A DNA stretch of 64,000 nucleotides, taken from the NCBI GenBank assembly GCA_944368975.1, contig CALVXI010000002.1, positions 12,513 through 76,512 on the forward strand. Reading direction: 5' to 3'. Shown here one piece after another: positions 652-59,379 of the stretch. The position numbers and the translations under genes are program-made. The notes beneath the pieces were generated by a model. It was not told where the DNA came from. It saw nothing but the letters and a program-made list of their open reading frames with translations, and ran no database searches. The first letter of the stretch is position 1. The number at the start of each line of letters is the position of its first letter. This DNA comes from an uncultured Bacilli bacterium (GTDB lineage Bacteria > Bacillota_I > Bacilli_A > RFN20 > CAG-826).

Positions 652-674
652 AAAAAGTGGAGTTTTGCAAGGTT

Positions 675-2510
675 ATGAAGAAAAAAATATTATATTTATC
701 ATTACTTTCTATTATAGGAACAACACTTATTGGATGTGATAACAATAATAATAAGACTGAATTTACTTTTACCTATAATGTTAATTATGAAGGTGGAGAA
801 AATAGAGTTGAAACTATAAAAAGAGGTAATAAAGCTCAAAATTGGGAGATTAGAAGAAGCGGATTTGAGTTTCTTGGTTGGTATGATAGTTCTAGCTTAG
901 ATAATTTATTTAATTTTGATACTCCAATTGAAAAAGATACAACTGTATATGCAGGTTGGAAAGAAGAAGTTATATCAGAAACGGTAACGGTTACATTTGA
1001 TTATAGTTTTAACGATGTAACTAATATTAGCAGAGTTTCTTTAACTAGTGGTGATACTTTATTAGAAGATTTTGCACCAGTTGTTGAAAGATTAGGCTAT
1101 GAAGTTGAAGGATGGTATTTAGATAATACGTACAAAAATAAGTTCAATTTTAGTGAAGATGTTGTTACTGAAGATATAACTTTATATGCTAATTATGAAT
1201 CAACTGCTAATTTTGAATATAATGAGGATGGATCAATTAAATTTGAAAATGTTACTTTTAATTTTGCTGTAAATAATGATTTAGGTGGATTAGAAAGTGC
1301 ATTTAATAAATTAGTTGTTCAATTTAACAAAGAGCATAGAGGAGAGATACTTGTTAGATTAGTTGACAATGATACGACTTCTAATAGTGAAATAACTGCT
1401 AAATTACATCAGACAGAAAGCTTTAATGAAACTCATACAGATTATCACAATATGGATGAAGTTTTAGATTTAGCTAATATCGAATTTAATAAAGAAGATT
1501 ATTACGAATATCAAATTCAAGATAATTATTTTGAAGGCAGATTAAAAACATTACCTTTAGGAAGCTGGGTACCACATATTGTATATAACAAAGCTTTATT
1601 AGATGAGTTTAATAATAGTGTTATCCCTTCTTCATTTGATGAATTTAATAGTCTTGCTAGAAAAATAACTGAAGCTAAAAAAACTGATTCAAATTGGTAT
1701 GGTGCAGTCACAGCTGACGCTGATTGGAATTTTACAGAAATTACAGGTAATTGTGCATATATTCAAAATGATTCACCTCATTATTATTTAAATAATGAGA
1801 ATGAACTTGTTTGTGATTGGAATAATATTGAAAACGGTGGACAAGAAAAAGCTCTTAATGCTTTAAAATCTCTATATACTTATTTTGGTGAAAATAAAAA
1901 TGATCTTCAAATTGGAAAGCGTGAAGGAACTTATGATGGAGAAGGAATGCCTGGTTTATCAGCGGTTGGAAGTGGCAATGCCTTATTTGGATTAGTTGGT
2001 ACGCCTGGAGCTAGAGATTATTACAAGTCTACTGCTGGAGTAAGTGATGCTAATTTAGATACAAAGCTTGGGATAATTCCATTAAGTAATTTCTTTGCTA
2101 TTGATAAAGATAATCCAAATGCAAGTAAGATTTTTGTTAAAGGATATTCTTATGGTGTAACTGCTAGTGGCCCTGAGGATTTATATAAAAAAGCAGCTGC
2201 TGGCGTATTCGGTGATTATTTAACGAAAAATCTTGCTCAAATTGCAGGGGAAATTTGGATGTATCCAGCAAATAAGACACAAATAGAAAATGCAACATTT
2301 AGAAATAGCGATGCCTTTAAATACTATTTACAATATTTTGGGAATCCTGAAAACTTCTTTACTTTACCAGGTACAAAAAATGAATACAGTATTTTTAACT
2401 ATACAATGGAAACATTGATTCTAAATTTATTTGTAAATGAAAATTATGATGAAGCGGCATTTAAAGAAATTTTAAATACTTCTTCAAGTAGTATTAACGC
2501 TTTATTGTAG
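675..2510 (+). CDS. Lipoprotein: two InlB B-repeat (Flg_new-like) domains fused to a sugar ABC solute-binding domain
   Basis: Lipobox LIGC after MKKK signal (ATG 675 preferred over GTG 657); two repeats of GFEFLGWY...FNFDTPIEKDTTVYAGW / GYEVEGWY...FNFSEDVVTEDITLYANY; SBP motif IVYNKALL...PSSFDEF. Confidence 0.8.
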   Translation: MKKKILYLSLLSIIGTTLIGCDNNNNKTEFTFTYNVNYEGGENRVETIKRGNKAQNWEIRRSGFEFLGWYDSSSLDNLFNFDTPIEKDTTVYAGWKEEVISETVTVTFDYSFNDVTNISRVSLTSGDTLLEDFAPVVERLGYEVEGWYLDNTYKNKFNFSEDVVTEDITLYANYESTANFEYNEDGSIKFENVTFNFAVNNDLGGLESAFNKLVVQFNKEHRGEILVRLVDNDTTSNSEITAKLHQTESFNETHTDYHNMDEVLDLANIEFNKEDYYEYQIQDNYFEGRLKTLPLGSWVPHIVYNKALLDEFNNSVIPSSFDEFNSLARKITEAKKTDSNWYGAVTADADWNFTEITGNCAYIQNDSPHYYLNNENELVCDWNNIENGGQEKALNALKSLYTYFGENKNDLQIGKREGTYDGEGMPGLSAVGSGNALFGLVGTPGARDYYKSTAGVSDANLDTKLGIIPLSNFFAIDKDNPNASKIFVKGYSYGVTASGPEDLYKKAAAGVFGDYLTKNLAQIAGEIWMYPANKTQIENATFRNSDAFKYYLQYFGNPENFFTLPGTKNEYSIFNYTMETLILNLFVNENYDEAAFKEILNTSSSSINALL

Positions 2511-2517
2511 GATTATT

Positions 2518-4485: not shown

Positions 4486-4488
4486 AAT

Positions 4489-7835: not shown

Positions 7836-9605
7836 ATGGAAATTAATTTTAATGAACAATTAAATGAATATAATGAATTTGATGAAAAAAGAATTAAAAA
7901 TAGTTTTGTATCAATTCAAGATCTTGAAAAAATTTATCCTAATGGGGTAAAAGCAGTTTATGATTTTAATTTAGATATTAAACATAATGAATTTATTGTT
8001 ATTGTTGGACCTAGTGGATGTGGAAAAACTACAACTTTAAGAATGATTGCTGGCCTTGAAGATATTAGTTCAGGTGGCGTTTTTGTAGACGAAGAATTGA
8101 TAAATTATAAACCTAGCAAAGATAGAAAAATGGCAATGGTTTTTCAAAGTTATGCATTATACCCTCAAATGAATGTCTTTGATAACATTGCCTTTCCTTT
8201 AAAAATTAATAAATTTCCAAAGGTTAAAATTGATGAGATTTTAAAATATAATAATGAGATTTTAGAGTTATTTAAAAATTCTGAAATTAGTAAAATTATT
8301 CAAGTTTTGCAGGAAATTCAAAATAAAAAGGCATTAAAATTGTCTCAAAATGAGCATTTAATGATGAGACTTAAAATTAGCGAAGGCGCAAGTAATGTTC
8401 TTTTAGAAATGAACATTAAAGACTTTAATAATTTTAATAATGAAGTAGAAGCATTTAAAAATAAACTATCTAACGAAATATTAAATGAGAAAAAATATTT
8501 AGAAAATAATAATTTAAAAGTTAATGAACAGTATGAGTTTATCGAAAATGGAGAAAAGGTTATAGTCTATGATAAACTTACAAAAAATGAAATTAAGCAA
8601 AAAGTATTTGAAGCGGCAAAAATATTAGATTTAGGGCCATACTTAGATAGGCTACCTAAAGAGCTTAGCGGTGGACAAATGCAAAGAGTTGCTTTAGGAA
8701 GAGCGATAGTTAAAAATGTCCCAATTTTCTTAATGGACGAACCTTTATCTAACTTAGATGCTAAATTGCGTTTATCAATGAGAAGCGAAATTGTAAAATT
8801 GCATAATAAAATTAAAGCTACAACGATTTATGTTACTCATGATCAAACTGAAGCAATGACTATGGCAGATAGAATTGTTGTTATGAGTAAAGGTTTTATT
8901 CAACAAATTGGTAGTCCTGAAGAGGTTTATAACCATCCTAAGAATTTGTTTGTTGCAAAGTTTATTGGTTCGCCTTCAATTAATGTAATAGAAGCTGAAT
9001 ATGATAACGGTAACATTTTTGCAACTAATGAAATTAATTTTAAACTAAATGAGAAATTTATAAGTGAACATAATGAATTTTATGATAATAAGATAAAAAT
9101 ATTTGAAGAAAAACTTGAAAATTTTAATACTGAATCTATTGAATTTATTAGAAAAATTCTTTCTTGTGTGATTAATGAGACAAATGTTATGAATTTTCCA
9201 ACTAAGAAACATAAACATTTTAAACGGATAAGAAATCTAATTAATAGAAATAAAAGTGTTGAAGTTGGCATTGAAGAAAAAATAGAAGCTAATCGATTAT
9301 TAGAAAGTTTAAAAGATGCAAGAAATAATGCTCATAAAGTTTATTTAGGTATAAGACCTGAGAATGTAAAGGTTGAAAAATTTAATCAAAATAAAGAATA
9401 CAATAATGCCATTATTGTTAAGCCAACAGTTTGTGAACTTTTAGGCGCTGATTATTTAATACATTTTGATTATGAAGGAAATGATTTCGTTCTTAAAACC
9501 GATCCAAAGTGTGATATTAAAACAAGCGATTTAATTGTTATAAATTTCTCTTACGAGGATATGTTGATTTTTGATTCAATAACTGGTGATATTATTTATG
9601 AATAA
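7836..9605 (+). CDS. Sugar ABC transporter ATP-binding protein (MalK/MsmX family) with large insertions
   Basis: GPSGCGKTT, VFQSYALYP, LSGGQMQRVALGRA, DEPLSNLDAKLR, YVTHDQ, LGIRPE. Confidence 0.92.
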   Translation: MEINFNEQLNEYNEFDEKRIKNSFVSIQDLEKIYPNGVKAVYDFNLDIKHNEFIVIVGPSGCGKTTTLRMIAGLEDISSGGVFVDEELINYKPSKDRKMAMVFQSYALYPQMNVFDNIAFPLKINKFPKVKIDEILKYNNEILELFKNSEISKIIQVLQEIQNKKALKLSQNEHLMMRLKISEGASNVLLEMNIKDFNNFNNEVEAFKNKLSNEILNEKKYLENNNLKVNEQYEFIENGEKVIVYDKLTKNEIKQKVFEAAKILDLGPYLDRLPKELSGGQMQRVALGRAIVKNVPIFLMDEPLSNLDAKLRLSMRSEIVKLHNKIKATTIYVTHDQTEAMTMADRIVVMSKGFIQQIGSPEEVYNHPKNLFVAKFIGSPSINVIEAEYDNGNIFATNEINFKLNEKFISEHNEFYDNKIKIFEEKLENFNTESIEFIRKILSCVINETNVMNFPTKKHKHFKRIRNLINRNKSVEVGIEEKIEANRLLESLKDARNNAHKVYLGIRPENVKVEKFNQNKEYNNAIIVKPTVCELLGADYLIHFDYEGNDFVLKTDPKCDIKTSDLIVINFSYEDMLIFDSITGDIIYE

Positions 9606-15057: not shown

Positions 15058-16425
15058 ATGTTTTATAGAAAAATTACTGAAAAGTTAAAGGCATGGAAGA
15101 AAAGTAAAAATAAAGTGCCAATTATTATAAAAGGTTTAAGACAAGTTGGTAAAACTACGACTGTTTTAGCTTTTGCAAAAGAAAATTATGAGAATATTGT
15201 TTATATTGACTTCCGTCAAGATAATATATTTAAATCAGCATTTGATGATGATTTAAATATCGATAGAATAATTTATCGATTAAAAACTTTAAATCCTAGT
15301 TTTAATTTTGTTCCAAATAAAACTGTAATTATTTTTGATGAATTACAAGAATGTGCTAGAGCACGAGCTTCTTTAAAATATTTTGCTTTAGATAATAGAT
15401 TTGATATTATTGGAACTGGTTCATTATTAGGATTAAAAAACTATAATTTAGATTTTGAAAAATCAGTTTCAGTTGGTTATGAATACTTTATTGATATGTA
15501 TCCTCTTGATTTTGAGGAATTTATTTTAGCTCTAGGATATGATAACTTAAATAGTATTTTAAAAGAAAATTTAATTAAAAAAACTGAGATTAGCAAAGTT
15601 TTTCATGATTTAGCTTTAAATTTGTTTCGCCAGTATTTAATTGTCGGTGGAATGCCTAATATTGTTAAAAGTTACATAGAGAATAAAGATTTATTTATGC
15701 TTAGAGAAAATCAAAAAAATATTTTAACGTCTTTTGAAATGGACTTTGGACGTTATATTAATGAAAACAATATCGTAAAAAGAGATAATGAACTTTTTAA
15801 TAAAATCCTTAAAGTTTATCATTCAATCCCTAATCAATTAGCAAAAGAAAATAAAAAATTTCAATTATCAAAAATTAATCATAATGCAAGAATGAGAGAA
15901 TATGAAGAAGCTATCGATTGGTTAAATGATTCAGGAATTGTTTATAAAGTTAATAATATTTCTTTAATTGAAACGCCACTAATGTCATATAGAATTGATG
16001 AAGCATTTAAACTTTATTTTGCTGATACTGGCTTACTTTTAAGTGAATATGATTATGGTTTTCAAGACCAAATTTTAAATGGTGACTCCTCAGTGTTTAA
16101 TGGAGCCTTATATGAAAATATAGTTGCATCTTTATTAAAAATTAATGGTTTTAATCTTTATTATTTTTCTAAACTTAATCGCTTAGAAATTGACTTTGTT
16201 ATAACTTATAATGCTTTACCTTGTGTAGTTGAAGTTAAAGCAACTAATTCAAAATCTAAATCTTTATCAACATTAATGAATAATAAAATAATGTATGGAT
16301 CAAATAACATTAAAGCAATTAAGTTTTATGATAAAAATATAAATATAGATGAAACTAAAGGAATAATTTATTTACCTTATTATTTAGCAACTTACATTAA
16401 AGTTACTGATAAAGCTTTATTTTAA
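15058..16425 (+). CDS. AAA_14 family ATPase with C-terminal DUF4143 (PD-(D/E)XK nuclease-like) domain
   Basis: Walker A GLRQVGKT, Walker B IIFDELQ, GTGSLLG, MYPLDFEEF, VGGMP, KLYFADTGLL, EIDFVI...VEVKA. Confidence 0.9.
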   Translation: MFYRKITEKLKAWKKSKNKVPIIIKGLRQVGKTTTVLAFAKENYENIVYIDFRQDNIFKSAFDDDLNIDRIIYRLKTLNPSFNFVPNKTVIIFDELQECARARASLKYFALDNRFDIIGTGSLLGLKNYNLDFEKSVSVGYEYFIDMYPLDFEEFILALGYDNLNSILKENLIKKTEISKVFHDLALNLFRQYLIVGGMPNIVKSYIENKDLFMLRENQKNILTSFEMDFGRYINENNIVKRDNELFNKILKVYHSIPNQLAKENKKFQLSKINHNARMREYEEAIDWLNDSGIVYKVNNISLIETPLMSYRIDEAFKLYFADTGLLLSEYDYGFQDQILNGDSSVFNGALYENIVASLLKINGFNLYYFSKLNRLEIDFVITYNALPCVVEVKATNSKSKSLSTLMNNKIMYGSNNIKAIKFYDKNINIDETKGIIYLPYYLATYIKVTDKALF

Positions 16426-17277: not shown

Positions 17278-17335
17278 TTAATTTGTTGATTTTTATTAAA
17301 GTTTTGCAAACTTTTTTTATTATTTTATTATATTG

Positions 17336-22172: not shown

Positions 22173-22784
22173 TTATTTTCTAATTTTAATTTTATCTTTA
22201 ATAATAGAACCTAAAATTAAGGCAACTTGAATTGGAATCATTAAGATAAATAAAGGCCAAACATTATATTCAATAAATTGGATATAACATGCAGCTACTA
22301 AGGTCCAAAAGAATAAACTCCTAACAACAAAATTATATATTTTAAGTTTCCAAACCTTTTGAAAAAACATCATTACTAAGCATGTAATTGGAAGTGCCCA
22401 AATAAAAATTTGATAGAAGTTAAATTCAGAGAATATTAATAAATAAATATAAATAATTGAAGCTAAAATCCAAACAAAAGAACAAGCTAAAAGTTCAATT
22501 GCAGCATTATTTATAATGATACCTTTATTTAAGTTTTTAACATATTCTTTATTATCTTTAAAGGCATCTTTAGTAAGTAAAATATCAATAGAAATGTTAT
22601 AAAATTCGCATAATTCACTTAAAGTTATAATATCGGGTAAGGTATCACCTTTTCCCCATTTACTAATAGCTTTATCACTATAACCGAACTTTAAAGCTAG
22701 TTCACTTTGAGTTAATTTATGTTTTTTCCTTAGATTTGCAAGGTTTTCAGCAATAATTGCTCTTTTTTCTTGTTCATTTTCCAT
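22173..22784 (-). CDS. XRE-family HTH regulator with a C-terminal 4-TM membrane domain
   Basis: IAENLANLRKKHKLTQSELA...SDKAISKWGKGDTLPDI; hydrophobic C-terminal half. Confidence 0.88.
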   Translation of the reverse strand: MENEQEKRAIIAENLANLRKKHKLTQSELALKFGYSDKAISKWGKGDTLPDIITLSELCEFYNISIDILLTKDAFKDNKEYVKNLNKGIIINNAAIELLACSFVWILASIIYIYLLIFSEFNFYQIFIWALPITCLVMMFFQKVWKLKIYNFVVRSLFFWTLVAACYIQFIEYNVWPLFILMIPIQVALILGSIIKDKIKIRK

Positions 22785-26696: not shown

Positions 26697-26724
26697 AAAT
26701 AATTGAGTTTTAGAAGGTTTTTAA

Positions 26725-27590: not shown

Positions 27591-27604
27591 AAAGTTTTTA
27601 AATC

Positions 27605-28888: not shown

Positions 28889-28949
28889 CGAAATAATTTT
28901 AACATACAAATAAATTTTATTTTATCAAAATTAATACTATAATTAATTT

Positions 28950-32591: not shown

Positions 32592-32592
32592 A

Positions 32593-35226: not shown

Positions 35227-35249
35227 TTAAGATTTAGAAGGTTTTTAGT

Positions 35250-39229: not shown

Positions 39230-39417
39230 AATCCTTCATCTCCTTTAATTTATTATATCACGCATAGAATAAAATAAAGTATTTTTTATTTATTTAAATA
39301 AAATATTGCTTAATATTTTTTTAGTGAATTAAGAACGTTTTTTAAAATTTTAATTTACGCTTATAATTAGAGATTGCATGATTTTTCTTTCGAAAACCTT
39401 GCAAAAGTAAGGTTTTT

Positions 39418-40878: not shown

Positions 40879-41016
40879 TCCTCCTGATTTATTTATTATA
40901 AAGCTCGGTATTGTCAAATTCAATTTTTGATATTTTTATTTATATTTTATACATCTTATTATTGTCGATATTATCTTATTAAAATAAAACATGTTAAGAA
41001 AATATTTTCAAAAAAA

Positions 41017-41082: not shown

Positions 41083-43206
41083 ATGATGAATAACGGAATG
41101 CAAGATTATCAAAATGATGAAAACATACTCCAAAAATTTGGGCGCCTTATTACTGAAGAAGTAAAAAATAATAAAGTGGACCCTGTTATTGGAAGAGATG
41201 AAGAAATTCGTAAAATAATAACTGTTTTAGCTAGAAAAACTAAGAACAATGTTATTCTTTTAGGTGAGCCTGGTGTTGGTAAAACAGCGATCATTGAAGG
41301 ACTTGCTCAAAGAATTGTTAATAATGATGTACCTCAAACTTTAAAAGATAAGGAAATTTTTGAACTTGATATGGGAGCTCTTATAGCAGGAGCAAAATAT
41401 CAAGGTGAATTTGAAGAAAGACTCAAAGCAGTTTTAAACAAAATTAAAGAAAGTAATCATAAAATCATAATGTTTATTGATGAAATTCACCTTATTGTAG
41501 GGGCAGGTAGAACTCAAGGAGCAATGGATGCTTCAAATATGTTAAAACCAATGCTAGCTAGAGGTGACATCGATTGTATTGGTGCTACTACTTTAAGTGA
41601 GTATCAACAATACATTGAAAAAGATAGAGCTTTAGAAAGACGTTTTCAACCAATTATGGTTAATGAACCTTCTAAAGAAGATACTTTGTCTATTTTAAGA
41701 GGATTAAAATCAAGATTTGAGTCACATCATGGTGTTAAAATTACAGATAATGCTTTAGTTGCTGCTGTTAATTATTCTACAAGATACATTACTAATAGAT
41801 TTTTACCAGATAAAGCAATTGATTTAATTGATGAGGCGTGTGCTGAAACTCGTGTAGAAATTGAGTCTATGCCAAGTGAACTTGATGAAGTTAATCGTAA
41901 AATTAGACAACTTGAAATCGAAAAACTTGCTTTAGAGCAAGAAAAAGATGAACAATCTCAATTAAGATTAAATAAATTAATAAAAGAATTAAATGATCTT
42001 AAAAATGAGTCTAATGAATTAACTAATAAATGGAAGAAAGAAAAAGAAGAAATTACTAGATTAAAGGAATTAAAGTCAAAATTAGATAAATTAAATTTTG
42101 ATCTTAATCAATCTTATAATGCTGGTGATTTTAAAAAAGCTAGTGAGATACAATATCGTGAGATTCCATTAGTAAAAGAAGAGATTAATAAAATTGAACT
42201 TGATGAAAAATCTACAAAAAGAATACTTTCTGATGAAATAACTGAAGAAAATATTGCTGAAATTGTTAGTAAAATGACTAATATTCCAGTTAGTAGAATT
42301 ACAAAAGGTGACAAAGAAAGAGTTCTTAACTTAAAAGAAACTTTAAGTAAAAGAGTTATTGGCCAAGATGATGCTTTAACTTTAGTTAGTGATGCGATTC
42401 TTAGACAAAGAGCTGGAATTAAGGATCAAAATAGACCAATTGGTAGTTTCTTATTTTTAGGTCCTACTGGTGTTGGTAAAACTGAAGTAGCTAAAGCTCT
42501 TGCTGAAGCTTTATTTGATAGTGATACGCATATTATTAGATTAGATATGAGTGAATACATGGAGAAATATAGTGTAAGTAGACTTCTTGGTGCTCCTCCA
42601 GGATATGTTGGATATGAAGAAGGAGGTCAACTTACTGAACCTGTTAGAAGAAATCCATATTCTATTGTTTTATTTGATGAAATTGAAAAAGCAAATCCAG
42701 AAATATTTAATGTTTTACTTCAAATAATGGACGATGGAAGATTAACTGATTCTCAAGGAAGAGTAGTTGATTTTAAAAATACGATTATCATTATGACTAG
42801 TAATTTAGGTAGTGAGGAAATTCTTCATGGTAATAAAGATGAAGTATTTAATTTATTAAGAAATTACTTTAAACCTGAATTTTTAAATCGTATTGACGAA
42901 GTAGTTTACTTCAATAGTTTAACTAAAGACGTTCAACTTAAAATTGCTGATAAATTATTAAATGATCTTTCAATTCGTTTAAGTAATGAATACTATCAAG
43001 TAATATTTAATAAAAATGTTAGCAAATATGTTCTTGATAAAGCTTATTCAAATGAATTTGGTGCTAGACCATTAAAGAGATTTATTCAACATAATATCGA
43101 AACAGTTTTAGCTAGAAAAATAATAAATGAAGAAATAAAAGTTAACACACCATATGAAGTAAATATCGTTAATGAAGAATTAATTATTAAACCTCTAAAA
43201 AAATAA
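41083..43206 (+). CDS. clpB: ClpB chaperone, short form lacking the N-terminal domain
   Basis: [18 protein letters not shown], coiled-coil M domain, [15 protein letters not shown]; 707 aa. Confidence 0.9.
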
Positions 43207-43235
43207 AAAACCTTCAAAACTAGAATATTTTTAGG

Positions 43236-44473: not shown

Positions 44474-45094
44474 ATGAAAAAGAGATCAAATTTTTTCTAT
44501 GATTCATTTGTTGAACAAATTAATTATGCTGTTAAAGCTATGTCTATCTTAAAAGAAGGTTTATTAAATTTTGATGGTATTGATACTTTAACTTTAAAAA
44601 ATAATGTTCATGAAGTTGAACATAATGCTGATATTATGAAGCATCAGTTAGAGGAAAAACTTGCTAAAGAATTTATAACTCCAATTGACCGTGAAGATAT
44701 TTTTGTTCTTTATGATAATATTGATGATTTAATTGATGCTATTGATGAAGTTAGCTATAAGATCTATTTAAGAAATTATAAGTCTCTTCCTAATAATATT
44801 GAATTATTTATCAATAAATCATTGGATGCTGTTAATTATTTAAAAGATGTTTTAGCATCTTTTAAATATATTGATGATAAGAAAATTATGGATCCTCTTT
44901 TAAGTAAAGTAATTGAAATTGAAGAAGAAGTAGATAAACTTTATGAAGAAAATGTCCATCATTTATATTTAAGTGAACTTGATTATAAAGTAACAACTAC
45001 TTTTGAAAAAGTATATGGATATTTTGAATACATTACTGATAAATGTCGCGATGTATGTAAAACAATAAGTGTTATTATGTACAAAAACTTGTAA
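44474..45094 (+). CDS. DUF47 / PhoU-like Pit accessory protein
   Basis: EHNAD, FITPIDREDI, EEEVD; adjacent to pit. Confidence 0.9.
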   Translation: MKKRSNFFYDSFVEQINYAVKAMSILKEGLLNFDGIDTLTLKNNVHEVEHNADIMKHQLEEKLAKEFITPIDREDIFVLYDNIDDLIDAIDEVSYKIYLRNYKSLPNNIELFINKSLDAVNYLKDVLASFKYIDDKKIMDPLLSKVIEIEEEVDKLYEENVHHLYLSELDYKVTTTFEKVYGYFEYITDKCRDVCKTISVIMYKNL

Positions 45095-45185
45095 AATAGT
45101 TGAGTTTTGCAAGGATTTTGAATTCTTATAAAAAGTGTTTGCAATTAATAATTATTTATATTAATATTATTAAGCACACATAAGT

Positions 45186-46030: not shown

Positions 46031-46501
46031 ATGAACGAATTAAAATATAAAATTATATAAATTACTAATAATAAAGATTATATTATTAAAGCAAGTGAAT
46101 TTTTCCATAATGTTTGGAATATTGATATTAATGAATATATTTTAAGTATGAAAGAATCTTTAAATAAGAAATTAGCTTTTCCTAAATGGCATATTGCTTT
46201 AATTAATGAAGAAATAATAGGAGGAGTAGGAGTAATATTTAATGATTTTCATAAAGAGAAAGATTTATATCCTAATATTTGTGCTTTATATGTAAAAGAA
46301 GAGTATCGAAATAAAAAAATCGCTACTAATTTAATCAATAAAGTTTGTAGCGATTTAATTAGTTATAAAATTAATAAAGTATATCTAATAACCTCTCATA
46401 CTAATTTTTATGAAAAATTAGGATTTAAATATTTAAAGGATGTTCATGAAGAAGATGATAATTTAATTAGAATGTATGTTAAAGATTTAGTTAGCTTTTA
46501 A
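46031..46501 (+). pseudogene. GNAT acetyltransferase with an in-frame stop at codon 10
   Basis: ATG 46031 (6 nt after TATAAT) is in frame with ORF 46148; TAA at 46058-46060; ALYVKEEYRNKKIA, FYEKLGF. Confidence 0.7.
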
Positions 46502-47215
46502 GATATTTCTAGCTAATTCAATTTCTTCATTAGTAGGTAATCTTGTATTAATTAACTTATATTTAATATTTAATTCTTGATATTTAGAAATTGCTAAATT
46601 GTGATATGGAAGGACTTCAATTTTTTTAATATTACTTAAAGTATCAAGAAATTTTCTTAACTTTTTTAAATCATCAATATTTAAAGTTAGTCCTGGCACA
46701 ATTACATGTCTTATCCAAACTGGAAAGTTCAATTTATTTAAAAAACCTGCTAGATCTAAGATATTTTTATTAGTTTTGCCAGTTAATTTAATATGTTTTT
46801 GTTCATCGATTTCTTTAATATCTAATAAAATTAAATCAGTATAATCTAAAAGTTCTTTAAATTTATTTAACCAATTTATATTATTTTCTTCAAAAGGTCC
46901 ACCAGAGGTATCAATACATGTATTGATACCATATTTTTTAGCTTCTTTAAATAAAGATATTAAAAAGTCAATTTGTAAAAGTGGTTCACCTCCACTAACA
47001 GTAATTCCACCTTCATTACCCCAATATTCTTTATAGCGTAAAGCTTTATTTATTAATTCAGTTGAATCAATTTCATATCCTTTATTTAAATCCCATGTTT
47101 CAGGATTATGACAATATAAGCAACGAAATTGACATCCTTGAGTAAAAATTACAAATCGAATACCAGGACCATCAACTGATCCAAAAGTTTCTATTGAACT
47201 TATTCTTCCTTTCAT
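46487..47215 (-). CDS. pflA: Pyruvate formate-lyase activating enzyme
   Basis: ETFGSVDGPGIR, CQFRCLYCHNPETW, SGGEPLLQ. Confidence 0.95.
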   Translation of the reverse strand: MKGRISSIETFGSVDGPGIRFVIFTQGCQFRCLYCHNPETWDLNKGYEIDSTELINKALRYKEYWGNEGGITVSGGEPLLQIDFLISLFKEAKKYGINTCIDTSGGPFEENNINWLNKFKELLDYTDLILLDIKEIDEQKHIKLTGKTNKNILDLAGFLNKLNFPVWIRHVIVPGLTLNIDDLKKLRKFLDTLSNIKKIEVLPYHNLAISKYQELNIKYKLINTRLPTNEEIELARNILKAN

Positions 47216-47217: not shown

Positions 47218-49461
47218 TTATAAAGTCTTATGGCATGTACGAGCAATAACATCTTTTTGTTGCTCTTTAGTTAAATCAATAAATTTAACAGCATATCCTG
47301 AAACTCTTATTGTAAAGTTTTGATATTCTTCTTTTTCAGGATGTTCCATAGCATCAATAAGTTTCTCTAAACCAAAAACATTAACATTTAAATGATGTGC
47401 TCCTTTAATAAAGTAGCCATCAAGTAAACTTACTAATGTTTTAATTCTTTCTTCCTTTGTATGACCTAAAGCACTAGGAGAAATAGTTTGAGTATTAGAA
47501 ATTCCATCTAAAGCAAATTCATAAGGGAGTTTAGCAACAGAATTTAAACTTGCAAGTAAACCATTTTTTTCTGCTCCATAAGATGGGTTTGCTCCTGGAG
47601 AAAGTGGAACAAAAGCTTTTCTTCCATCAGGAAGAGCTCCAGTAAATTTACCATAAACTACATTTGAAGTAATTGTTAAAATAGAAGTAGTTGGTTCACT
47701 ATTTCGATATGTGTGATTACTTGCAATTTTGCGCATAAAAGTTTTAAGTAACCAAATTGCAATATCATCAGCTCGATCATCATCATTTCCATAACGAGGG
47801 AAATCACCTTCAACTCGATAATCAATAGCTAAACCATTTTCATCACGAATTGTTTTTACCTTTGCATATTTTATAGCGCTTAAACTATCAACGACATGAG
47901 AAAATCCTGCAATGCCAGTGGCAAATGTACGTCTTACATTAGTATCAATTAAAGCCATCTCTAATGCTTCATAATAATATTTATCATGCATATAGTGAAT
48001 TAAATTTAATGTATTGACGTATAAAGAAGCTAACCAGTCCATCATTAAATCAAATTTATGTATTACTTCATCGCAATTTAAATATTCGCTTGTGATAGGC
48101 GCTATTTCTGGCCCAATTTGTTCTTTACTTTTTTCATCAACTCCACCATTAATTGCATAAAGTAAACATTTTGCTAAGTTAGCTCTAGCTCCAAAAAATT
48201 GCATTTCTTTACCGGTTTCAGTAGCACTAACACAACAGCATATCGAATAATCATCCTTCCAAATAGGACGCATAACTTCGTCATTTTCATATTGAATTGA
48301 ACTTGTATCGATGGATATTTTGGAAGCATATTTTTTAAATGCACTTGGTAAACTATGCGAATATAAAACAGTTAAATTTGGTTCAGGAGAAGGACCCATA
48401 TTTTCTAATGTGTGTAAGAAACGGAAATCGTTTTTAGTAACTAATGTTCTACCATCCATCCCCATTCCGCCAACTTCTAAAGTTGCCCAAACAGGATCTC
48501 CAGAAAAAAGTTCATTATAAGAAGGGATCCTAGCAAATTTAACCATTCTAAATTTCATTACTAAATGATCAATTAATTCTTGAGCTTCTTTTTCAGTTAT
48601 TAATCCTTTTTTTAAGTCTCTTTCAATATATATATCTAAGAAAGTAGAAATTCTACCAACAGACATTGCTGCCCCATTTTGAGTTTTAATAGCACCTAAA
48701 TAGCCAAAATAAAGCCATTGAACTGCCTCTTTAGCATTACTTGCTGGTTTTGAAATATCATAGCCATAATCATTAGCCATAATTTTTAATTCTTTTAAAG
48801 CTTTAATTTGATCAGCAATTTCTTCTCTTAGACGAATAACATCGTCAGTCATGACCTTGCCAGTATAAAATAGATCCTCTTTTTTCTTTTCAATCAAAAA
48901 ATCAACACCATATAAAGCAACTCGACGATAATCTCCAACAATTCTTCCTCGACCATAAGTATCTGGTAAACCAGTAATAATATGAGAATGACGTGCTTTT
49001 TTCATCTCAGGAGTATAAGCATCAAAAACGCCTTGATTGTGTGTTTTATGATATTTGGTAAAAATTTCTTCTAAAGATGGATCAAGTTTATAACCATAAG
49101 TAACTAAACTTTCTTCAGCCATTTTAATGCCACCATAAGGCATAAAAGCTCTTTTTAAAGGCTTATCAGTTTGTAAACCAACAACCTTTTCAATTGAAGG
49201 ATCCTCAGGATTTAGATAAGAGGCTTTATAAGCAGCAATTGAAGAAACAACATGTTCCTCCATATCTAAAACTCCACCTTTTTTTCTTTCCTCAATTTGT
49301 AAGGCCTTTAATTTATTCCATAAATAAGTCGTATTTTCTGTTGGACCTTCTAAAAAAGATTCATCACCTTCATAAGGAGTATAGTTTTTTTGAATAAAAT
49401 CTCGAACATCAACTTCAGTTTCATAATGTCCGCCTTTAAATCCTTCCCACTCTTTAAACAT
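47218..49461 (-). CDS. pflB: Formate C-acetyltransferase (pyruvate formate-lyase)
   Basis: [17 protein letters not shown] active site, glycyl-radical IRVSGYAV. Confidence 0.96.
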
Positions 49462-49724
49462 AATTTTTACCCTCCTTTAATCGTTAAGATTTTATATGAA
49501 AATAGTTAAATTATCTATTAATATGCAACTCGTTTACATTAATAATATTTTATAAGTAAATAAAATATTTCTTTGCTTAAGAATTATTATAAGTCTTAAA
49601 TTAAAAAATAGTAATATATTTTTAAGTAAATTTAAAAAATAAATTCTTAAAAACCCTGCAAAACCTTAATATTTTTTAGAAAATAAAAAATAATAATGCA
49701 AAAAGATTTAAAAAGATATATTAT

Positions 49725-49863: not shown

Positions 49864-50973
49864 ATGGAAAAATTAAAAAAGCTATTCGCTTATATTGGTA
49901 AAGAAGTATTATTCACTATATTTACTGCAATTATTCTTATTTCATTAATCGCACCAATTTTTGACTTAAGCTTAGAAGCTGATGGTGTAAAAACAGAATT
50001 TAGTATTACTTTCTTAGATTTATTTATTGGAAATAATATTGGTTATATTGATCTTAGTATTGATTTTGTTACTAGCGCAATTATTACTATTTCGTTAGTG
50101 AGTTTAGTTCTTGTCTGGATTAACTTCTTAATTAATAAAGTTTATAAAAAAGATAATAATTTAATCAGTAAAATTAATAGTTTTATTCTCATTATTGCTA
50201 TTATTTTACTTGCTGTTAGTAATTTAATTTTTGCTGAATATTCTTATATTAAAGATGCTGGATATAAGGTTGAATTTAACGATATTGGTTTTATAATTTA
50301 TTTAATTTGTTTAGGTGGAATGGCTCTAATTTCATTAAGTGATATTTTTAAGAAAGTCCATTATGATACTCATGAAATTGTTGAAATTTCAATGCTTATT
50401 TCTTTAGCTATTGTTTTAGATAAATTTGCTTCTATTGACATTGGGGCTACTGGTGGTAGTTTTAATTTTAGTGGAATCCCACTTTTATTAATTGCTGTTA
50501 GATATGGTGTAACTAAATCTCTTATAAGTAGTTCAGTAGTTTTTTCAATCTTAACTTGTTTACTTGATGGTTATGGTTTACAAACTTTACCATTTGACTA
50601 TGTAATTGCTTTTAGTGGCTATGCTTTTGCTGGATTAAGTTATAGCTTAATTGATAAATATTTATTTAAGAATAATTCTAAAAAAGAAATAATTAACATT
50701 ATTATAAGTATGGTAATTGGTGGAATTGGTGTTCTTCTTACAAGAATGATTGGTTCATCAATCTCTTCGATGATTTATTATAATTATAGTTTAGAAGCAG
50801 CATTAGCTTACAATATAGTTTATGTTGGTCCAAGTGCTGCAATATGTGTAGTTGGTGGAATTATTCTTAGTGGTCCTTTAGCATTAATCAATAAACTTTA
50901 TCCTGTAGATCGCTATAAGAAAAACATCACTAAAGTAAATAAAGAAGAAGAAAACATTGTCGAAGAAAAATAA
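49864..50973 (+). CDS. thiT: ECF-type thiamine transporter S component (ThiT-like) with an extra N-terminal membrane domain
   Basis: C-terminal half EISMLISLAIVLD...GGSFNF...PLLLIAVRYG...FDYVIAF; TPP riboswitch upstream. Confidence 0.8.
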   Translation: MEKLKKLFAYIGKEVLFTIFTAIILISLIAPIFDLSLEADGVKTEFSITFLDLFIGNNIGYIDLSIDFVTSAIITISLVSLVLVWINFLINKVYKKDNNLISKINSFILIIAIILLAVSNLIFAEYSYIKDAGYKVEFNDIGFIIYLICLGGMALISLSDIFKKVHYDTHEIVEISMLISLAIVLDKFASIDIGATGGSFNFSGIPLLLIAVRYGVTKSLISSSVVFSILTCLLDGYGLQTLPFDYVIAFSGYAFAGLSYSLIDKYLFKNNSKKEIINIIISMVIGGIGVLLTRMIGSSISSMIYYNYSLEAALAYNIVYVGPSAAICVVGGIILSGPLALINKLYPVDRYKKNITKVNKEEENIVEEK

Positions 50974-53692: not shown

Positions 53693-54127
53693 ATGGATAT
53701 ATTAAAAGTAAGTCATAGTGATTTAGATAAAATTTTAGAGATTGAAAATGAATCATTTATTAAACCTTTTAAAAAGGAAAATTTTTTATATGAACTAAAT
53801 GAAAACCCTTTTTCTCGTTTTTATAAATTAGTTATAGATAATGAAATTATTGGTTTTCTTTTACTTTATGTTACTTTTGATAGTTCCTCTATTGTCCAAA
53901 TTGCAATAAAAAAAGGTAAAAGAAATCAAGGTTTTGCATGGTTTTTACTTCAAAATGTCGAAAAATTATTAATTAAAGAGGAAGTAAATTTCATTACTTT
54001 AGAAGTTAGAGTTTCAAATATTCCAGCTAGAAAGTTATATAAGAAATTAGGATATGAAGAAATAAATATTAAGAAAGGATACTATGAAGATGGTGAAGAC
54101 GCCATTTATATGGTAAAAGGTATTTAA
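53693..54127 (+). CDS. rimI: Ribosomal protein S18 alanine N-acetyltransferase
   Basis: LEVRVSNIPARKLYKKLGY...YYEDGEDA; located between tsaB and tsaD. Confidence 0.9.
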   Translation: MDILKVSHSDLDKILEIENESFIKPFKKENFLYELNENPFSRFYKLVIDNEIIGFLLLYVTFDSSSIVQIAIKKGKRNQGFAWFLLQNVEKLLIKEEVNFITLEVRVSNIPARKLYKKLGYEEINIKKGYYEDGEDAIYMVKGI

Positions 54128-55142: not shown

Positions 55143-55161
55143 TAAATAAGGAAAAGCATAT

Positions 55162-57582
55162 ATGAAACTTGATGTTGAAAAATTAATTAATGAATTAACA
55201 ATAGAAGAAAAGGCATATCTATTATCTGGCTATACTGTTATGTCGACGATGCCAATTAAAAGATTAAATATACCTAGTGTTAATTTTAGTGATGGACCAT
55301 TAGGAATAAGAAAATTAGATGAAGGTGGAAATTCTCTTAGTGGTATCACTGAATCTTTAATTTCAACTTGTTTTCCTTCACCAACAAATTTAGCAAGTTC
55401 TTTTAATAAAGAAAATTCAAAATTAATGGGAGAAGTAATTAGTGATGAGTGTAAATATTACAATATTCAAGTAATGCTTGCTCCAGCAATTAATATTAAA
55501 CGTAATCCATTATGTGGAAGAAATTTCGAATATTTAAGTGAAGATCCATTTTTAACTAGTGAGATTATTAAAGGATATATAAATACATTAGAAGATAATG
55601 GAATTGGAAGTTGTTTAAAACATTTTGCTTGCAATAATAATGAGACTATCCGTTATTATGGTAATTCAATAGTCGATGAAAGAGCAATGTTTGAGATTTA
55701 TTTTAAAGCTTTTCGTGATTTAACCAAAAATGGTCATCCATTTACTTATATGAGCTCTTATAATCAAATTAATGGAACGTATGCTAGCGATAATGATTTT
55801 TTATTAAATAAAACATTAAGAGATAATTTTAAATTTAATGGATTAGTGATGACTGATTGGGGAGGACTTACTTTAGATCGAGTTAGTTGCTTAATTCATG
55901 GCACAGATTTAGAAATGCCTGGAATGACTAAAGAAAATACTAATCAAATAATTGAAAGTATAAGAAATAAGACCTTAGATATTGAAGTTCTTAATAATAG
56001 TGTTTGTAATTTATTAAATTTAATTAATAAATTAGATTATACAAAACATAATGATGTTGATTTTGAAAGTCATTATGAGGTAAGTAAAAAAATAGCGACT
56101 GATTCGATAGTTTTATTAAAAAATGATGATCAAATATTACCTTTAAAGAAAAATAAAAGCATTCTTTGTGTCGGTTCTTTATTTAAAAAGAATCATTATC
56201 AAGGTAGCGGTAGTAGTTTACTTAATCCTGCTAAACTTACTAGTATTGAAGAAGCATTTATTAATAATAAAGTTAATTTTAAATATTTAGAAGGATATTT
56301 AGAAAGCGAAACTAAGATTAATAAAAAATTAGAAAAAGAAGTGCTTAAAAATGTAAATAATTATGATTATATTTTATATTTTTGTGGTTTAACTGATTAT
56401 GAAGAAAGTGAAGGATTTGACCGAGAAACATTAAAATTAAACGAAAATCAAATTCATTTATTAGGAGAAATCCTTAAATTAAATAAAAATGTAATTTTAG
56501 TTTTACAAAATGGTGGGGTAATTGAGATTCCTTATAATAATGAAGTAAAAGGAATTGTTGAAACTTTCTTATTAGGTGAAGCAATTGGTGATAGCTTATA
56601 TTCAATTTTATTTGGAGAAGTTAGTCCAAGTGGTCGCTTACCTGAAACATTTGTTAAATCAATGAACGATATTCCTTTTATTAATGAATTTAATAAGCAA
56701 CATGAAGAATATTATAAAGAGTCAATTTATGTTGGTTATCGATATTATCAAAGTGTTAATAAGGAAGTTTTATATCCTTTTGGATACGGATTAAGTTATG
56801 CTAAATTTAGTTATTCAAATTTCAATATAGAAAAAGTAAATGATGGGATTAAAGTAAAATTTACTATTAAAAACGAAAGTGATATTGAAGCTAAAGAAGT
56901 TAGCCAAATTTATGTTTCAAAAGAAAATAGTGACATTTTTAGACCCCTCAAAGAACTTAAATTTTTCACAAAAACCCTTCTAAAACCTTATGAAATTAAA
57001 GAAATTGAAGGTTTTATCTCTTTCGAAGACCTTAAAATTTATGATGTTAATTCAAAGACTTTTAAACTTGAAGATGGAGAATATAAGTTTATTTTATCAA
57101 AGGATGCATTAAATGAAATTAGTAGTTTAAAAGTTTTTATTGAGGGTGAAAAGTTAGTTAATAAGTTTAGTAAACTAATCAATAAATATTATAAAGATCC
57201 TAAAAATTTATTGAATGTTACAGATGATGCTTATTATGAGTTATTAGGTTATAAACCTCAAAAATTAATTTTTAAAAGACCTTATACACTAGAAACACCA
57301 ATAAAAGAATTTAAAACACTTTATGGTAAAATCTTTATTAAAATTATGCTTAATCAAGCTGATAAAAAACGTAAGAAAGCTAAAAGAATTAAAGATCCAT
57401 TCCTTAAAGAAAGAGAATTAAAAGCAGCTGTTTTTATGAAAAAATTAACATTAGCTAATAGCTTAAGAAGCTTATGTTTTTCTAGTAGTGGTTTAATGAG
57501 CTATAACTTTATGCTTGGAATTTTAGCCTTGGTCAATAATCATCCAATCAAAGCTATTAAATATTTTATGAAAAAATCATAA
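55162..57582 (+). CDS. Glycoside hydrolase family 3 beta-glucosidase-like protein with Fn3-like domain
   Basis: SDGPLGIR, RNPLCGRNFEYLSEDP, KHFACN, nucleophile MTDWG, ESEGFDR, YPFGYGLSY. Confidence 0.92.
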   Translation: MKLDVEKLINELTIEEKAYLLSGYTVMSTMPIKRLNIPSVNFSDGPLGIRKLDEGGNSLSGITESLISTCFPSPTNLASSFNKENSKLMGEVISDECKYYNIQVMLAPAINIKRNPLCGRNFEYLSEDPFLTSEIIKGYINTLEDNGIGSCLKHFACNNNETIRYYGNSIVDERAMFEIYFKAFRDLTKNGHPFTYMSSYNQINGTYASDNDFLLNKTLRDNFKFNGLVMTDWGGLTLDRVSCLIHGTDLEMPGMTKENTNQIIESIRNKTLDIEVLNNSVCNLLNLINKLDYTKHNDVDFESHYEVSKKIATDSIVLLKNDDQILPLKKNKSILCVGSLFKKNHYQGSGSSLLNPAKLTSIEEAFINNKVNFKYLEGYLESETKINKKLEKEVLKNVNNYDYILYFCGLTDYEESEGFDRETLKLNENQIHLLGEILKLNKNVILVLQNGGVIEIPYNNEVKGIVETFLLGEAIGDSLYSILFGEVSPSGRLPETFVKSMNDIPFINEFNKQHEEYYKESIYVGYRYYQSVNKEVLYPFGYGLSYAKFSYSNFNIEKVNDGIKVKFTIKNESDIEAKEVSQIYVSKENSDIFRPLKELKFFTKTLLKPYEIKEIEGFISFEDLKIYDVNSKTFKLEDGEYKFILSKDALNEISSLKVFIEGEKLVNKFSKLINKYYKDPKNLLNVTDDAYYELLGYKPQKLIFKRPYTLETPIKEFKTLYGKIFIKIMLNQADKKRKKAKRIKDPFLKERELKAAVFMKKLTLANSLRSLCFSSSGLMSYNFMLGILALVNNHPIKAIKYFMKKS

Positions 57583-57635
57583 TAGAAAATAAATTATTTT
57601 ATAAAAATAAATGTCAATAATGATATAATAAAAAG

Positions 57636-58319
57636 ATGGAAAACAAATCTAGTATTGAAGAATTAATTAAACAAATGGAATCATTTAAACTCCCAGGGTA
57701 TAAAGATTTACCTGAGATTCCTTTATATATGGAACAAGTTGTAAGTTATGTTAAAGAAGCTTTAGGAATTTTAGGAAATAACAATGACATATCAATCACT
57801 CCATTTATGATAAATAATTATGTCAAAGCAAAAATCATTGATTCACCAAGCGAAAAGAAATATAACCAAAGACATTTAGGCTATCTAATTGCAATATCTT
57901 TACTTAAATCTGTAGTGAACATGAAGGATTTAGCCACTTTTATTGATATAGACCGTAGTGAAATTTTAAAGAAAAATAATAGTGATACTTTCTTATATGA
58001 TGTTTTTAAAGAATTGGAAGAAGATGCTTTGCATAATGCCATTCATAAAGTAAAAGTCTTAAATGAAGTTTTTAAAAAGTCTGCAAAAAAGAATAAGAAT
58101 AAGAAAGAAAATTCTGAAGAAATAGAAAAAGCAAATTTATCATATATTGCTTTAAGACTTTATGTTGAAAGTGAAGCTAATAAATTAATTGCTGATATGA
58201 TTATGCAGCAAATAGGTCAAGATACATTTAAAAATCTTGATACTTCAAAATATGATCGAAAGAAAATCGGCGTAGAAGCTAAAAAACTTCGTGATAGAGA
58301 AAAAGGAGTTAAAAAATGA
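57636..58319 (+). CDS. DUF1836 domain protein
   Basis: LPEIPLYMEQV, ITPFMINNYVK, KKY. Confidence 0.85.
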   Translation: MENKSSIEELIKQMESFKLPGYKDLPEIPLYMEQVVSYVKEALGILGNNNDISITPFMINNYVKAKIIDSPSEKKYNQRHLGYLIAISLLKSVVNMKDLATFIDIDRSEILKKNNSDTFLYDVFKELEEDALHNAIHKVKVLNEVFKKSAKKNKNKKENSEEIEKANLSYIALRLYVESEANKLIADMIMQQIGQDTFKNLDTSKYDRKKIGVEAKKLRDREKGVKK

Positions 58320-59332
58320 GAGTATTAGTTACTGGTGGTTTAGGTTTTATTGGTAGTCATACTGTTTGTGACTTACTTGAAAGCGGTTATGATGTAACAA
58401 TTATCGATAACTTATATAATTCAAAAGAAGTTGTTCTCGAAAGAATTAAAGAAATTACTGGTAGGGCTCCAAACTTTTATAAATTTGATGTACAAAATAA
58501 AGAAAAATTAGAAGAAGTATTTAAGAAAGAAAAAATAGATGCAATAATTCATTTTGCTGGCTATAAAGCAGTAGGAGAAAGTGTTGAAAAACCACTTGAA
58601 TATTATGAAAATAACTTAGATACTACTTTTGCCTTATTATGGATGATGAAAAAATATGGTACTAAAAATTTTGTTTTTAGTAGTAGTGCTACAATTTATG
58701 GAGTTCCTGATAAGGTTCCTTTAAAAGAAACAGATCCAAGAAAAGAAGCAACATCTCCTTATGGTGAAAGCAAGGTTATGATTGAAAGAATATTAGAAGA
58801 TGTAAGTCATGTTAATAAGGATTACAATATCGCTATTTTAAGATATTTTAATCCAATTGGCGCACATAAGTCTGGATTATTAGGTGAAGACCCTAATGGT
58901 ATCCCTAATAATTTATTACCATATATAAATAAAGTAGCTGTCGGCGAACTTAAATATTTAAATGTTTTTGGAAATGACTATCCTACAAAAGACGGGACAG
59001 GTGTTAGAGATTATATCCATGTTTTAGATTTAGCTAGAGGCCATGTTTTAGCTTTAAAGAAACTTGAAACAAATCCTGGATTAGTTATTTATAATTTAGG
59101 AACTGGAAAAGGTACTAGTGTTTTAGAGATGATTAAAGCTTATGAAGAAGCAACAAATATTAAAATACCTTATGAAATTAAACCACGTAGAAGTGGAGAT
59201 GTTGCTATAAATTATGCCGACTGTTCTAAAGCAAATATTGAATTAGGTTTTAAAGCTAAGTATACGATTAAAGATGCCTGTTTAGATGGTTATAATTATC
59301 AATTAGCTGAAGAAAAAAGAAAAAATAGTTAA
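58316..59332 (+). CDS. galE: UDP-glucose 4-epimerase
   Basis: TGGLGFIGSH, KAVGESVEKPLEYY, YGESK, LRYFNP, RDYIHV. Confidence 0.96.
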   Translation: MRVLVTGGLGFIGSHTVCDLLESGYDVTIIDNLYNSKEVVLERIKEITGRAPNFYKFDVQNKEKLEEVFKKEKIDAIIHFAGYKAVGESVEKPLEYYENNLDTTFALLWMMKKYGTKNFVFSSSATIYGVPDKVPLKETDPRKEATSPYGESKVMIERILEDVSHVNKDYNIAILRYFNPIGAHKSGLLGEDPNGIPNNLLPYINKVAVGELKYLNVFGNDYPTKDGTGVRDYIHVLDLARGHVLALKKLETNPGLVIYNLGTGKGTSVLEMIKAYEEATNIKIPYEIKPRRSGDVAINYADCSKANIELGFKAKYTIKDACLDGYNYQLAEEKRKNS

Positions 59333-59379
59333 ATTTTGCAAGGTTTTTAATATAAATTTAAAATAAAAAGATATTTTAT

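Follow-up and report, generated by a model that had tools for sequence, protein, structure and literature searches.

We analysed a 64-kb stretch of DNA from an uncultured Bacilli bacterium (contig CALVXI010000002.1; G000:C2:12513-76512 in our numbering), which we call the window, together with the draft genome it belongs to (G000; 1.30 Mb, 21 contigs, 26% G+C) and its relatives. All genomes compared are draft metagenome bins. The window carries a dispersed motif that an earlier note, made from its letters alone, had described as an 18-bp word. We found that this word is the core of an asymmetric unit of about 30 bp, AAAAAATAnTTnAGnTTTTGCARGGTTTTT, which recurs throughout the genome. The sites are missing from the region around the replication terminus as given by GC skew, a new finding that held in all four species looked at. 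We see about an even chance that the motif forms an array of protein-binding sites whose function depends on their position on the chromosome.

The anatomy of the motif was derived from an alignment of 57 strict genomic copies, defined by the pattern TTGCA[AGT]GG[TC]TT. Conservation extends about 16 bp further upstream than the 18-bp core. The core word described before is real, but the conserved unit also includes an A-rich upstream flank (AAAAAATAnTTnAG), giving the overall layout AAAAAATAnTTnAGnT-TTGCARGG-TTTTT. The A-tract and the two T-tracts are spaced by roughly one helical turn, from which we infer that the DNA around the 6-bp GC-containing core may be bent or expose a narrow groove on one face. 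In the logo we found no dyad symmetry, no terminal inverted repeats, no hairpin and no similarity beyond about 30 bp. G050, a distant congener from a second motif-bearing clade, independently yielded an identical logo of flank and core (217 sites). In both genomes the sites occur in either orientation, and the description of the motif as non-palindromic and bidirectional was correct.

The motif is strongly over-represented. The most over-represented 10-mers of the whole G000 genome are words of its core; on both strands together, TGCAGGGTTT was observed 22 times and TGCAAGGTTT 35 times, compared to 0.54 and 2.44 occurrences expected from an order-3 Markov model. A position weight matrix (PWM) identified 199 sites scoring at least 12, against a single one in a genome simulated with the same model, and 124 sites scoring at least 20, against none; the comparison with a Markov background that the earlier note had called for thus came out clearly in favor of the motif. 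As a natural control we used G003, a motif-less congener of similar composition (879 kb, 25% G+C), which contains four sites at the lower threshold and none at the higher one. The density in G000 is one site per 6.5 kb for the set of 199. An iterated, relaxed PWM gave 407 sites (one per 3.2 kb), a set that has no simulated null. The view of the motif as a genome-wide signal was borne out: it is the top over-represented word, occurs in both orientations, was substituted into coding sequence and is limited to certain clades (see below).

We subsequently analysed how the sites are distributed along the chromosome in four of the 11 motif-rich genomes, with the terminus defined by GC skew and gene orientation only. 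The spacing of the sites in G000 is slightly more even than random (coefficient of variation 0.92 vs 1.07 +/- 0.09), and the sole outlier is C6:1-63896, which contains no site. The only plus-to-minus switch of GC skew in the genome coincides with a convergence of gene orientation at about 25 kb on this contig, and the two together mark the replication terminus. When the start of contig C7 is joined to the start of C6, a join inferred from synteny with three relatives, the site-free zone comprises C7:1-19809 and C6:1-63896, a total of 83.7 kb with no site where 12.8 are expected. The other three species gave a corresponding picture. No site was present between 37.4 and 120.6 kb of contig C3 of G011, around a skew switch at about 80 kb, and the borders of this zone lie in the same genes as those of G000. 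For G018, with a switch at about 100 kb of C2, the region from 60 to 180 kb was fetched; it contained no site with a PWM score of at least 12 between 60 and 161 kb, and one weak 13-mer match at 68.9 kb. The two largest gaps of the whole G050 genome (98.9-202.6 and 202.6-252.5 kb of C2) are adjacent and flank its skew switch at about 180 kb, with one site in 153.6 kb compared to about 21 expected. The depleted zone thus spans 84-154 kb. Skew switches of the origin type, on C9 of G000 and C1 of G050, show normal or high site density. In G011, the C6 block has segments of C7 of G000 on either side.

The gap tracks chromosomal position and not gene identity. There are 51 genes (59.7 kb) in G000 whose orthologs are located in the wider gap of G050 and which lie outside the gap of G000 itself. 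These genes carry 10 sites in G000, eight of them scoring above 20, while the whole wider gap of G050 contains six weak sites with scores of 12-18. Two other causes of the gap were considered and rejected. Foreign DNA does not account for it, since the zone belongs to the core genome and encodes DnaG, a GyrB/ParE-type subunit, transketolase, RelA, a class-I tRNA synthetase and Lon. Neither does a mis-binned motif-free contig, since the nearest relatives of Lon from C6 are the same as those of genes on C2 and C4 (G045, G013 and G036 with 74% identity, G011 with 70%). In G050, the normally origin-proximal block mnmE-mnmG-rsmG-parA-parB occupies C2:100-121 kb, only 60-80 kb from the terminus-type switch (compared to C4:17-53 kb in G000), which indicates a large rearrangement with respect to G000 and G011.

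The position of the sites relative to genes was determined with open reading frames (ORFs) from a crude in-house caller, which cover 91.8% of G000. In the relaxed set, 141 of 407 sites (35%) are intergenic, as are 28 of 75 (37%) in the strict set, an approximately four-fold enrichment. Intergenic cores typically start 4-20 nt past a co-oriented stop codon, with maxima at 4, 8 and 12-16 nt, or else they stop 11-16 nt short of the end of a convergent gene. Because the core begins only a few nucleotides past the stop, the stop codon itself often lies within the A-rich flank. Copies at gene ends are more often sense (54) than antisense (31), and eight of the 28 strict intergenic copies are located between divergent gene starts. 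Some 35 strict copies are located well inside ORFs, with 21 in sense orientation. Together these copies use three sense and two antisense frames and retain the full flank, indicating that the constraint acts on the nucleic acid and not on the peptide. Replication polarity is weak: leading- and lagging-strand sites number 221:156 in G000 (45:27 for strict sites), where genes are distributed 876:165, and 107:100 in G050. A hairpin plus T-run follows downstream of 13 of the 54 motif-sense gene ends, six of the 31 motif-antisense ends and 151 of the 1019 motif-free ends. Simple ORF callers take the TTG of the motif or a nearby GTG as a start codon (for example, window positions 657-2510). Nine of 47 strict copies assigned to coding sequences are probably intergenic due to such upstream-extended false starts, and automatic annotations of motif-bearing genomes may carry false starts at these codons.

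In the one gene checked, the copies within the coding sequence arose by substitution. This conserved 625-aa gene is located beside rsmG-parA-parB and by this position is taken to be a putative mnmG. Its two strong copies are found at residues 135-147 (antisense) and 468-480 (sense). Comparison with 29 orthologs did not reveal any insertion or deletion at either copy; both represent substitutions in variable segments, and the nearest relatives show near-motif states. At the 3' end of a galE-like gene, the motif is found past the stop codon in G000 and four related species, and in other species this place is taken by the next gene or by a hairpin terminator of the ordinary kind. In several relatives, a tRNA gene directly follows galE.

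Sites are conserved in position between the two motif-bearing clades. A G050 site was present within 45 nt of the orthologous position for 29 of 131 G000 sites that have an orthologous context (null: 0-5 in 20 random draws). Among the sites deep within genes, 10 of 68 were matched by position (null: mean 0.37, maximum 2 in 30 draws), eight of these 10 with the same orientation relative to the gene, in proteins that are 39-63% identical. It follows that individual sites have kept their places over long periods.

The motif is restricted to part of the genus. Counts of TTTGCARGNTTTT in 41 genomes of the genus were 40-105 in 11 genomes, including G000, 10-22 in seven and 0-5 in 23, compared to 0-3 for a reversed-pattern control. 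The intermediate genomes are G036, G031, G044, G038, G040, G004 and G016. Twelve genomes from other families of the order gave 0-1 matches to a stricter 13-mer. When placed on a tree of the 625-aa protein with 30 rows, the motif-rich genomes group in two clades, G018/G011/G000/G036/G013/G045 and G039/G009/G001/G050/G042, the latter with intermediates. The tree also contains low-count clades, one of eight and one of five species. G003, the sole low-count genome searched as a whole, contains no dispersed over-represented word of its own, which argues that the system is missing there and was not swapped for another dialect. The only over-represented GC-containing 10-mers of G003 derive from a collagen-like tandem repeat, in which the words CCTTTTGGACC and CACCTTTTG are repeated on one strand (locus L147, about 8.8-9.7 kb; also L154).

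How could such an array work? We propose that the motif would serve as a recognition site at the DNA level, consisting of the A-tract, TAnTTnAG and TTTT-GCARGG-TTTTT, and that its reader would most likely be a sequence-specific DNA-binding protein. About 200 sites in either orientation are spread over both chromosome arms. They occupy the places that a compact genome can afford, most of them directly behind a stop codon and the rest in variable protein stretches, and a terminus zone of roughly 84-154 kb is spared. Such an array could mark bulk chromosome as opposed to terminus for a process linked to the cell cycle; alternatively, the bound protein might compact or tether the arms. Both the binding and its effect are predictions from the arrangement of the sites.

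This positional logic is known from nucleoid occlusion. According to passages of PMC4726725, B. subtilis has about 70 Noc-binding sites (NBS), each a 14-bp palindrome, and the sites of Noc and of SlmA are under-represented in the terminus (Ter) region. The same passages describe Noc (ParB family) and SlmA (TetR family) as unrelated proteins and the distribution of their sites as a timing device for division, and state that nucleoid-occlusion factors have been identified in a few model bacteria only. The motif resembles the Noc sites of B. subtilis and S. aureus, as portrayed there, in that specific sites are spread over the arms and missing around the terminus, and both systems belong to Bacilli. 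It differs from the roughly 70 palindromic NBS in being about 30 bp long, asymmetric and present in about 200 copies in a genome a third of the size. With the SlmA sites of E. coli it shares the terminus-depleted array, and the same passages show that such arrays have arisen independently with an unrelated TetR-family protein. The SlmA site is a 12-bp palindrome with 24-52 copies, bound by a TetR-family dimer in Gammaproteobacteria, whereas the motif is asymmetric. We therefore class the motif as Noc/SlmA-like and as a member of neither family, because the positional logic is shared and the site and proteins differ. By this analogy we tentatively suggest, as a possibility clearly short of even, a third and independently evolved system for nucleoid occlusion or for separating arms from terminus, with an asymmetric site of about 30 bp and a candidate binder outside the ParB/Noc and SlmA lineages. 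If true, such a system would exist in uncultured gut Bacilli with reduced genomes, and it would be old enough for individual in-gene sites to have been held across clades whose proteins share no more than about 40-60% identity. G000 encodes FtsZ.

Several observations weigh against this interpretation. Known nucleoid-occlusion sites are short palindromes with about 25-70 copies per 4-5 Mb, whereas the motif lacks symmetry and its density is more than tenfold higher. The preference for positions 4-20 nt past stop codons and the 54:31 sense bias are no known feature of Noc or SlmA sites; we assume that both may simply reflect the cheapest place for a 30-bp word. Finally, our search for a binder was negative: ParB, the membrane protein encoded next to parB and an extracytoplasmic function (ECF) σ factor do not track the motif in the 41 genomes.

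ParB/Noc was rejected as the binder in G000 since the single ParB_N match, encoded in the mnmG-rsmG-parA-parB cluster, scored 127.6 bits compared to a cut-off of 315 for the Noc model. A ParB was not found with the G000 query in the motif-rich genomes G009 and G011 (both 96% complete), and identity values do not follow the motif. The ECF-S-like membrane protein next to parB and the ECF σ factor were dropped due to their distribution. Consistent with the earlier view of the motif as unlike parS or Noc sites, the consensus sequences of both gave no match at up to one mismatch; for the NBS consensus, the genome contains four matches at two mismatches. We also compared gene content: 195 crude ORFs of G000 have a match in G050 and none in G003, and 111 of these were read by eye. 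Two TetR-like ORFs as well as MarR-like, LysR-like and Xre-like ORFs were noticed by eye. The binder may also be a protein that is present in all species.

Some side observations were made during this comparison. One cluster common to G000 (C9:19305-34269; locus L389) and G050 was not found in G003. It encodes an AAA_5 ATPase along with a weak match to DUF2357 (McrBC-like), an ABC ATPase accompanied by large proteins that carry no annotation, and a Listeria-Bacteroides-repeat protein. Pfam searches with 10 ORFs of one G050-shared cluster returned the McrBC-like assignment plus unknowns. Locus L389 also encodes six paralogous proteins of 230-270 aa that match no Pfam family and have a single membrane helix at the N-terminus, which ends in a GFS(S/T)W-like motif; paralogous clusters are located at C2:173914-178039 and C13:11306-13783. 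Searching the 879 kb of G003 by tblastn with G000 queries gave no match for GroES (C5:51510-51788), RuvA-like and XseA-like ORFs. The 540-aa protein encoded beside GroES, a putative GroEL by position and 87% identity to G050, was likewise without a match.

Of the two readings offered by the earlier note, a DNA-uptake-like signal and a protein-binding site, the latter is favored because the sites are excluded from the terminus, as are those of Noc and SlmA; we retained the former as the weaker rival. It holds that the motif is a self-recognition signal like the uptake signal sequence (USS) of Pasteurellaceae or the DNA uptake sequence (DUS) of Neisseriaceae, spread through biased uptake and recombination by point substitution, and we regard it as unlikely. 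The resemblance is considerable: the motif is the top over-represented word, its two orientations are about equally frequent, it is enriched at gene 3' ends with occasional hairpin-forming inverted pairs (for example, C2:88437/88459), it entered coding DNA by substitution in variable protein segments, and it is clade-specific. Its GC-containing core with phased A/T-tracts is also similar to the architecture of the Haemophilus USS. Checking for com genes revealed ComEC, DprA and a T2SSE-type ATPase locus in G000, as the uptake reading would predict, but the same genes are equally present in motif-less G003, and ComEC occurs in both high- and low-count congeners (the Pfam ComEC model is weak in this lineage, so that blanks are unreliable). 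Competence genes thus do not appear to track the motif, and G003 lacks any dialect of it. USS and DUS have a density of about one per kb, compared to one per 3-6.5 kb for the motif, which is about 5-10 times less dense. Moreover, spread by uptake offers no reason for a gap at the terminus that is sharp and tied to position, and no such gap is known to us for USS or DUS. We know of no uptake signal in Bacillota; to our knowledge, the motif would be the first if this explanation were true. The pairs mentioned above are inverted copies at G000 C2:88437-88470 and C7:55077-55090, which form strong hairpins (-14.9 kcal/mol at the first), and similar pairs are found in G050 (C4:219784/219806) and G009 (C14:41534/41557).

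The remaining alternatives fare worse. A role in RNA, with UUUUGCARGGUUUUU at the transcript 3' end acting as a hairpin-less, factor-dependent terminator or as a stability or processing signal in the 3' untranslated region, would explain why the core lies 4-20 nt past a co-oriented stop in most intergenic cases, why sense copies prevail at gene ends, why the motif ends in a T-run and why motif-free species often have a classic hairpin terminator at the same place behind galE. We nevertheless consider it improbable, since 31 of the 85 gene-end copies are antisense, eight of the 28 strict intergenic copies lie between divergent starts, and the roughly 35 strict copies deep in genes include 21 in sense orientation, where termination would be harmful. 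In addition, the motif does not replace hairpins (13/54 and 6/31 vs 151/1019 gene ends, as described above), and the terminus gap is left unexplained. An Rfam scan of the window at gathering scores returned two tRNAs only and no RNA family at the motif. An intrinsic terminator was rejected outright due to the missing dyad, the antisense share of the gene-end copies and the sense copies deep in genes. Promoter readings (σ70, σ54, ECF) were dropped on the basis of the logo, which shows no conserved element behind the core at the spacing of a promoter; the distances from the motif to downstream gene starts are broad (5-1508 nt).

It is hardly credible that the motif represents a miniature inverted-repeat transposable element, a repeat of the repetitive extragenic palindromic (REP) or bacterial interspersed mosaic element (BIME) type, or a footprint of IS607/TnpB elements. 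The sites are dispersed at gene 3' ends, and both G000 and G050 contain IS607-like TnpA/TnpB, whose counterparts were not found in G003. However, no insertion or deletion accompanies the two in-gene copies checked against 29 orthologs, similarity ends after about 30 bp without inverted repeats or a hairpin, and sites are conserved across clades, so that this explanation is largely refuted. REPs are imperfect, hairpin-forming extragenic palindromes, some of which are bound by nucleoid proteins. Like them, the motif is a short repeat in the 3' intergenic regions of unrelated genes; unlike them, it is without a dyad and also occurs inside genes. The IS607-like elements of G000 are two identical pairs (C5:100791-102705 and C7:55814-57728), which on reading by eye consist of a 221-aa serine-recombinase-type TnpA with an N-terminal helix-turn-helix and a TnpB-like protein of 426 aa that has a zinc ribbon at its C-terminus. 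TnpB-like ORFs that are more diverged or partial are located at C9:9308-10510 and C15:3-257. Homologs of these elements occur in G050, and none was found in G003.

Equally remote is the idea of a polar signal, such as FtsK-orienting polar sequences (KOPS) or SpoIIIE recognition sequences guiding FtsK/SpoIIIE, or Chi, or of a partition site of the parS type. The motif is an over-represented chromosomal word with a G-rich stretch, GCAGGG, in its core. Its strand polarity is too low for such a function, given the ratios of 221:156 and 45:27 in G000 and 107:100 in G050 compared to 876:165 for genes, and the density of KOPS rises towards dif, whereas that of the motif falls to zero. A site of the parS type would not fit either, since the motif is neither palindromic nor confined to the origin and ParB was not found in two motif-rich genomes. 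A literature search (supplementary files being outside its reach) with four 12-letter words of the core returned, among the matches listed, unrelated studies only, presumably due to oligonucleotides. Among the listed papers that mention a related Candidatus taxon, none dealt with such a motif, as judged by title and opening of the abstract.

Taking the motif as a predicted binding array, it bears on how most other bacteria, small-genome gut lineages included, couple division to the state of the chromosome. It was found from the letters of the DNA, and the combination of an over-represented word with a gap test at the skew switch can be applied to any draft genome. The motif also provides a concrete bait for capturing its binder by DNA affinity or by DNA affinity purification sequencing (DAP-seq). 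It further shows that protein sequences can be shaped in dozens of spots across a genome of 1.3 Mb by selection for a word in the DNA.

Within the window, a scan with RRGTTTTGCAWGGTTTTT allowing up to three mismatches gave 15 matches, compared to 1.83 +/- 1.30 (maximum 6) in 100 dinucleotide shuffles. The array of about 13 copies claimed before is therefore real, and its size has to be corrected to 15 firm plus six to seven weaker copies. Thirteen of the 14 places listed in the earlier note were recovered: 11 by the consensus scan (660, 22731, 26705, 35229, 45102, 53929 and 59331 on the plus strand; 37674, 39392, 49649 and 56971 on the minus strand) and 43206-43222 and 46741 by PWM; position 21819 appeared in no scan. 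Eight further copies that the earlier note does not list are located at 8307, 15591, 28194 and 30054 and, weaker ones, at 11167, 12500, 17304 and 27601. The copies are compiled in the following table.

Table. Copies of the motif in the 64-kb window (coordinates refer to the window; (-) marks ORFs on the minus strand).
Position	Strand	PWM score	Class	Context
649..678	+	24.7	copy	core TTTTGCAAGG; just past stop at 651
8291..8320	+	13.9	copy	sense, within ORF 7836..9605
15575..15604	+	18.2	copy	sense, within ORF 15058..16425
17288..17317	+	17.6 (relaxed)	weaker copy	intergenic
22720..22749	+	20.8	copy	antisense within ORF 22173..22784(-)
26694..26723	+	20.0	copy	variant core TTTTAGAAGG; A-rich flank over stop of ORF 23841..26696
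27588..27617	-	23.9 (relaxed)	weaker copy	core TTTAAAAAC; between convergent ORFs 26811..27590 and 27605..28909(-)
28181..28210	-	13.7	copy	sense, within ORF 27605..28909(-)
30041..30070	-	21.9	copy	sense, within ORF 29871..30539(-)
35218..35247	+	21.3	copy	overlaps stop of AdhE-like gene (32572..35226); separate hairpin terminator downstream
37673..37702	-	25.3	copy	antisense, last codons of agmatinase-family gene (36802..37704)
39391..39420	-	28.5	copy	sense, directly past end of ORF 39418..40923(-)
43204..43233	-	19.2	copy	core one base short; antisense; abuts stop of ClpB-like gene (41083..43206); separate hairpin downstream
45091..45120	+	31.7	copy	overlaps stop of PhoU_div gene (44474..45094); tRNA at 45186 downstream
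46740..46769	-	15.8 (relaxed)	weaker copy	within ORF 46487..47215(-)
49648..49677	-	38.2	copy, best of window	intergenic, between ORFs 47218..49461(-) and 49864..50973(+)
53918..53947	+	25.2	copy	sense, within GNAT/rimI-like gene (53693..54127)
56970..56999	-	15.9 (relaxed)	weaker copy	antisense within GH3 gene (55162..57582)
59320..59349	+	33.8	copy	overlaps stop of GalE-like epimerase gene (58316..59332); motif there in 4 related species

The statement that seven copies lie near stop codons agrees with our results, since at least seven abut or overlap a stop (660/651, 26705/26696, 35229/35226, 45102/45094, 59331/59332, 39409 with the gene end at 39418, and 43206/43206). In addition, the copy at 37674-37691 falls in the last codons of the agmatinase gene; as had been noticed, it differs from the copy in rimI at one base over 22 nt. 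Three copies had been placed between a stop and a hairpin. Our scan located a separate downstream hairpin plus T-run for two of the copies at stop codons (35229 and 43206). The MATE/IS66 part contains no copy, as already described: no PWM site was present past 59349. Its IS66-type segment, so named in the earlier note, spans 62082-64000, and the ORF 62082-62417 has a partial homolog with 85% identity in G050. The tRNA genes of the window (45186-45273 and 59850-59923) are each located 80-500 nt downstream of a motif copy (45091-45120 and 59320-59349, respectively). Among the 40 of 583 strain differences listed, one single-nucleotide polymorphism and one 1-nt deletion affect the A-rich flank of the copy at 43204-43233, and one 1-nt deletion affects the T-run of the copy at 39391-39420.

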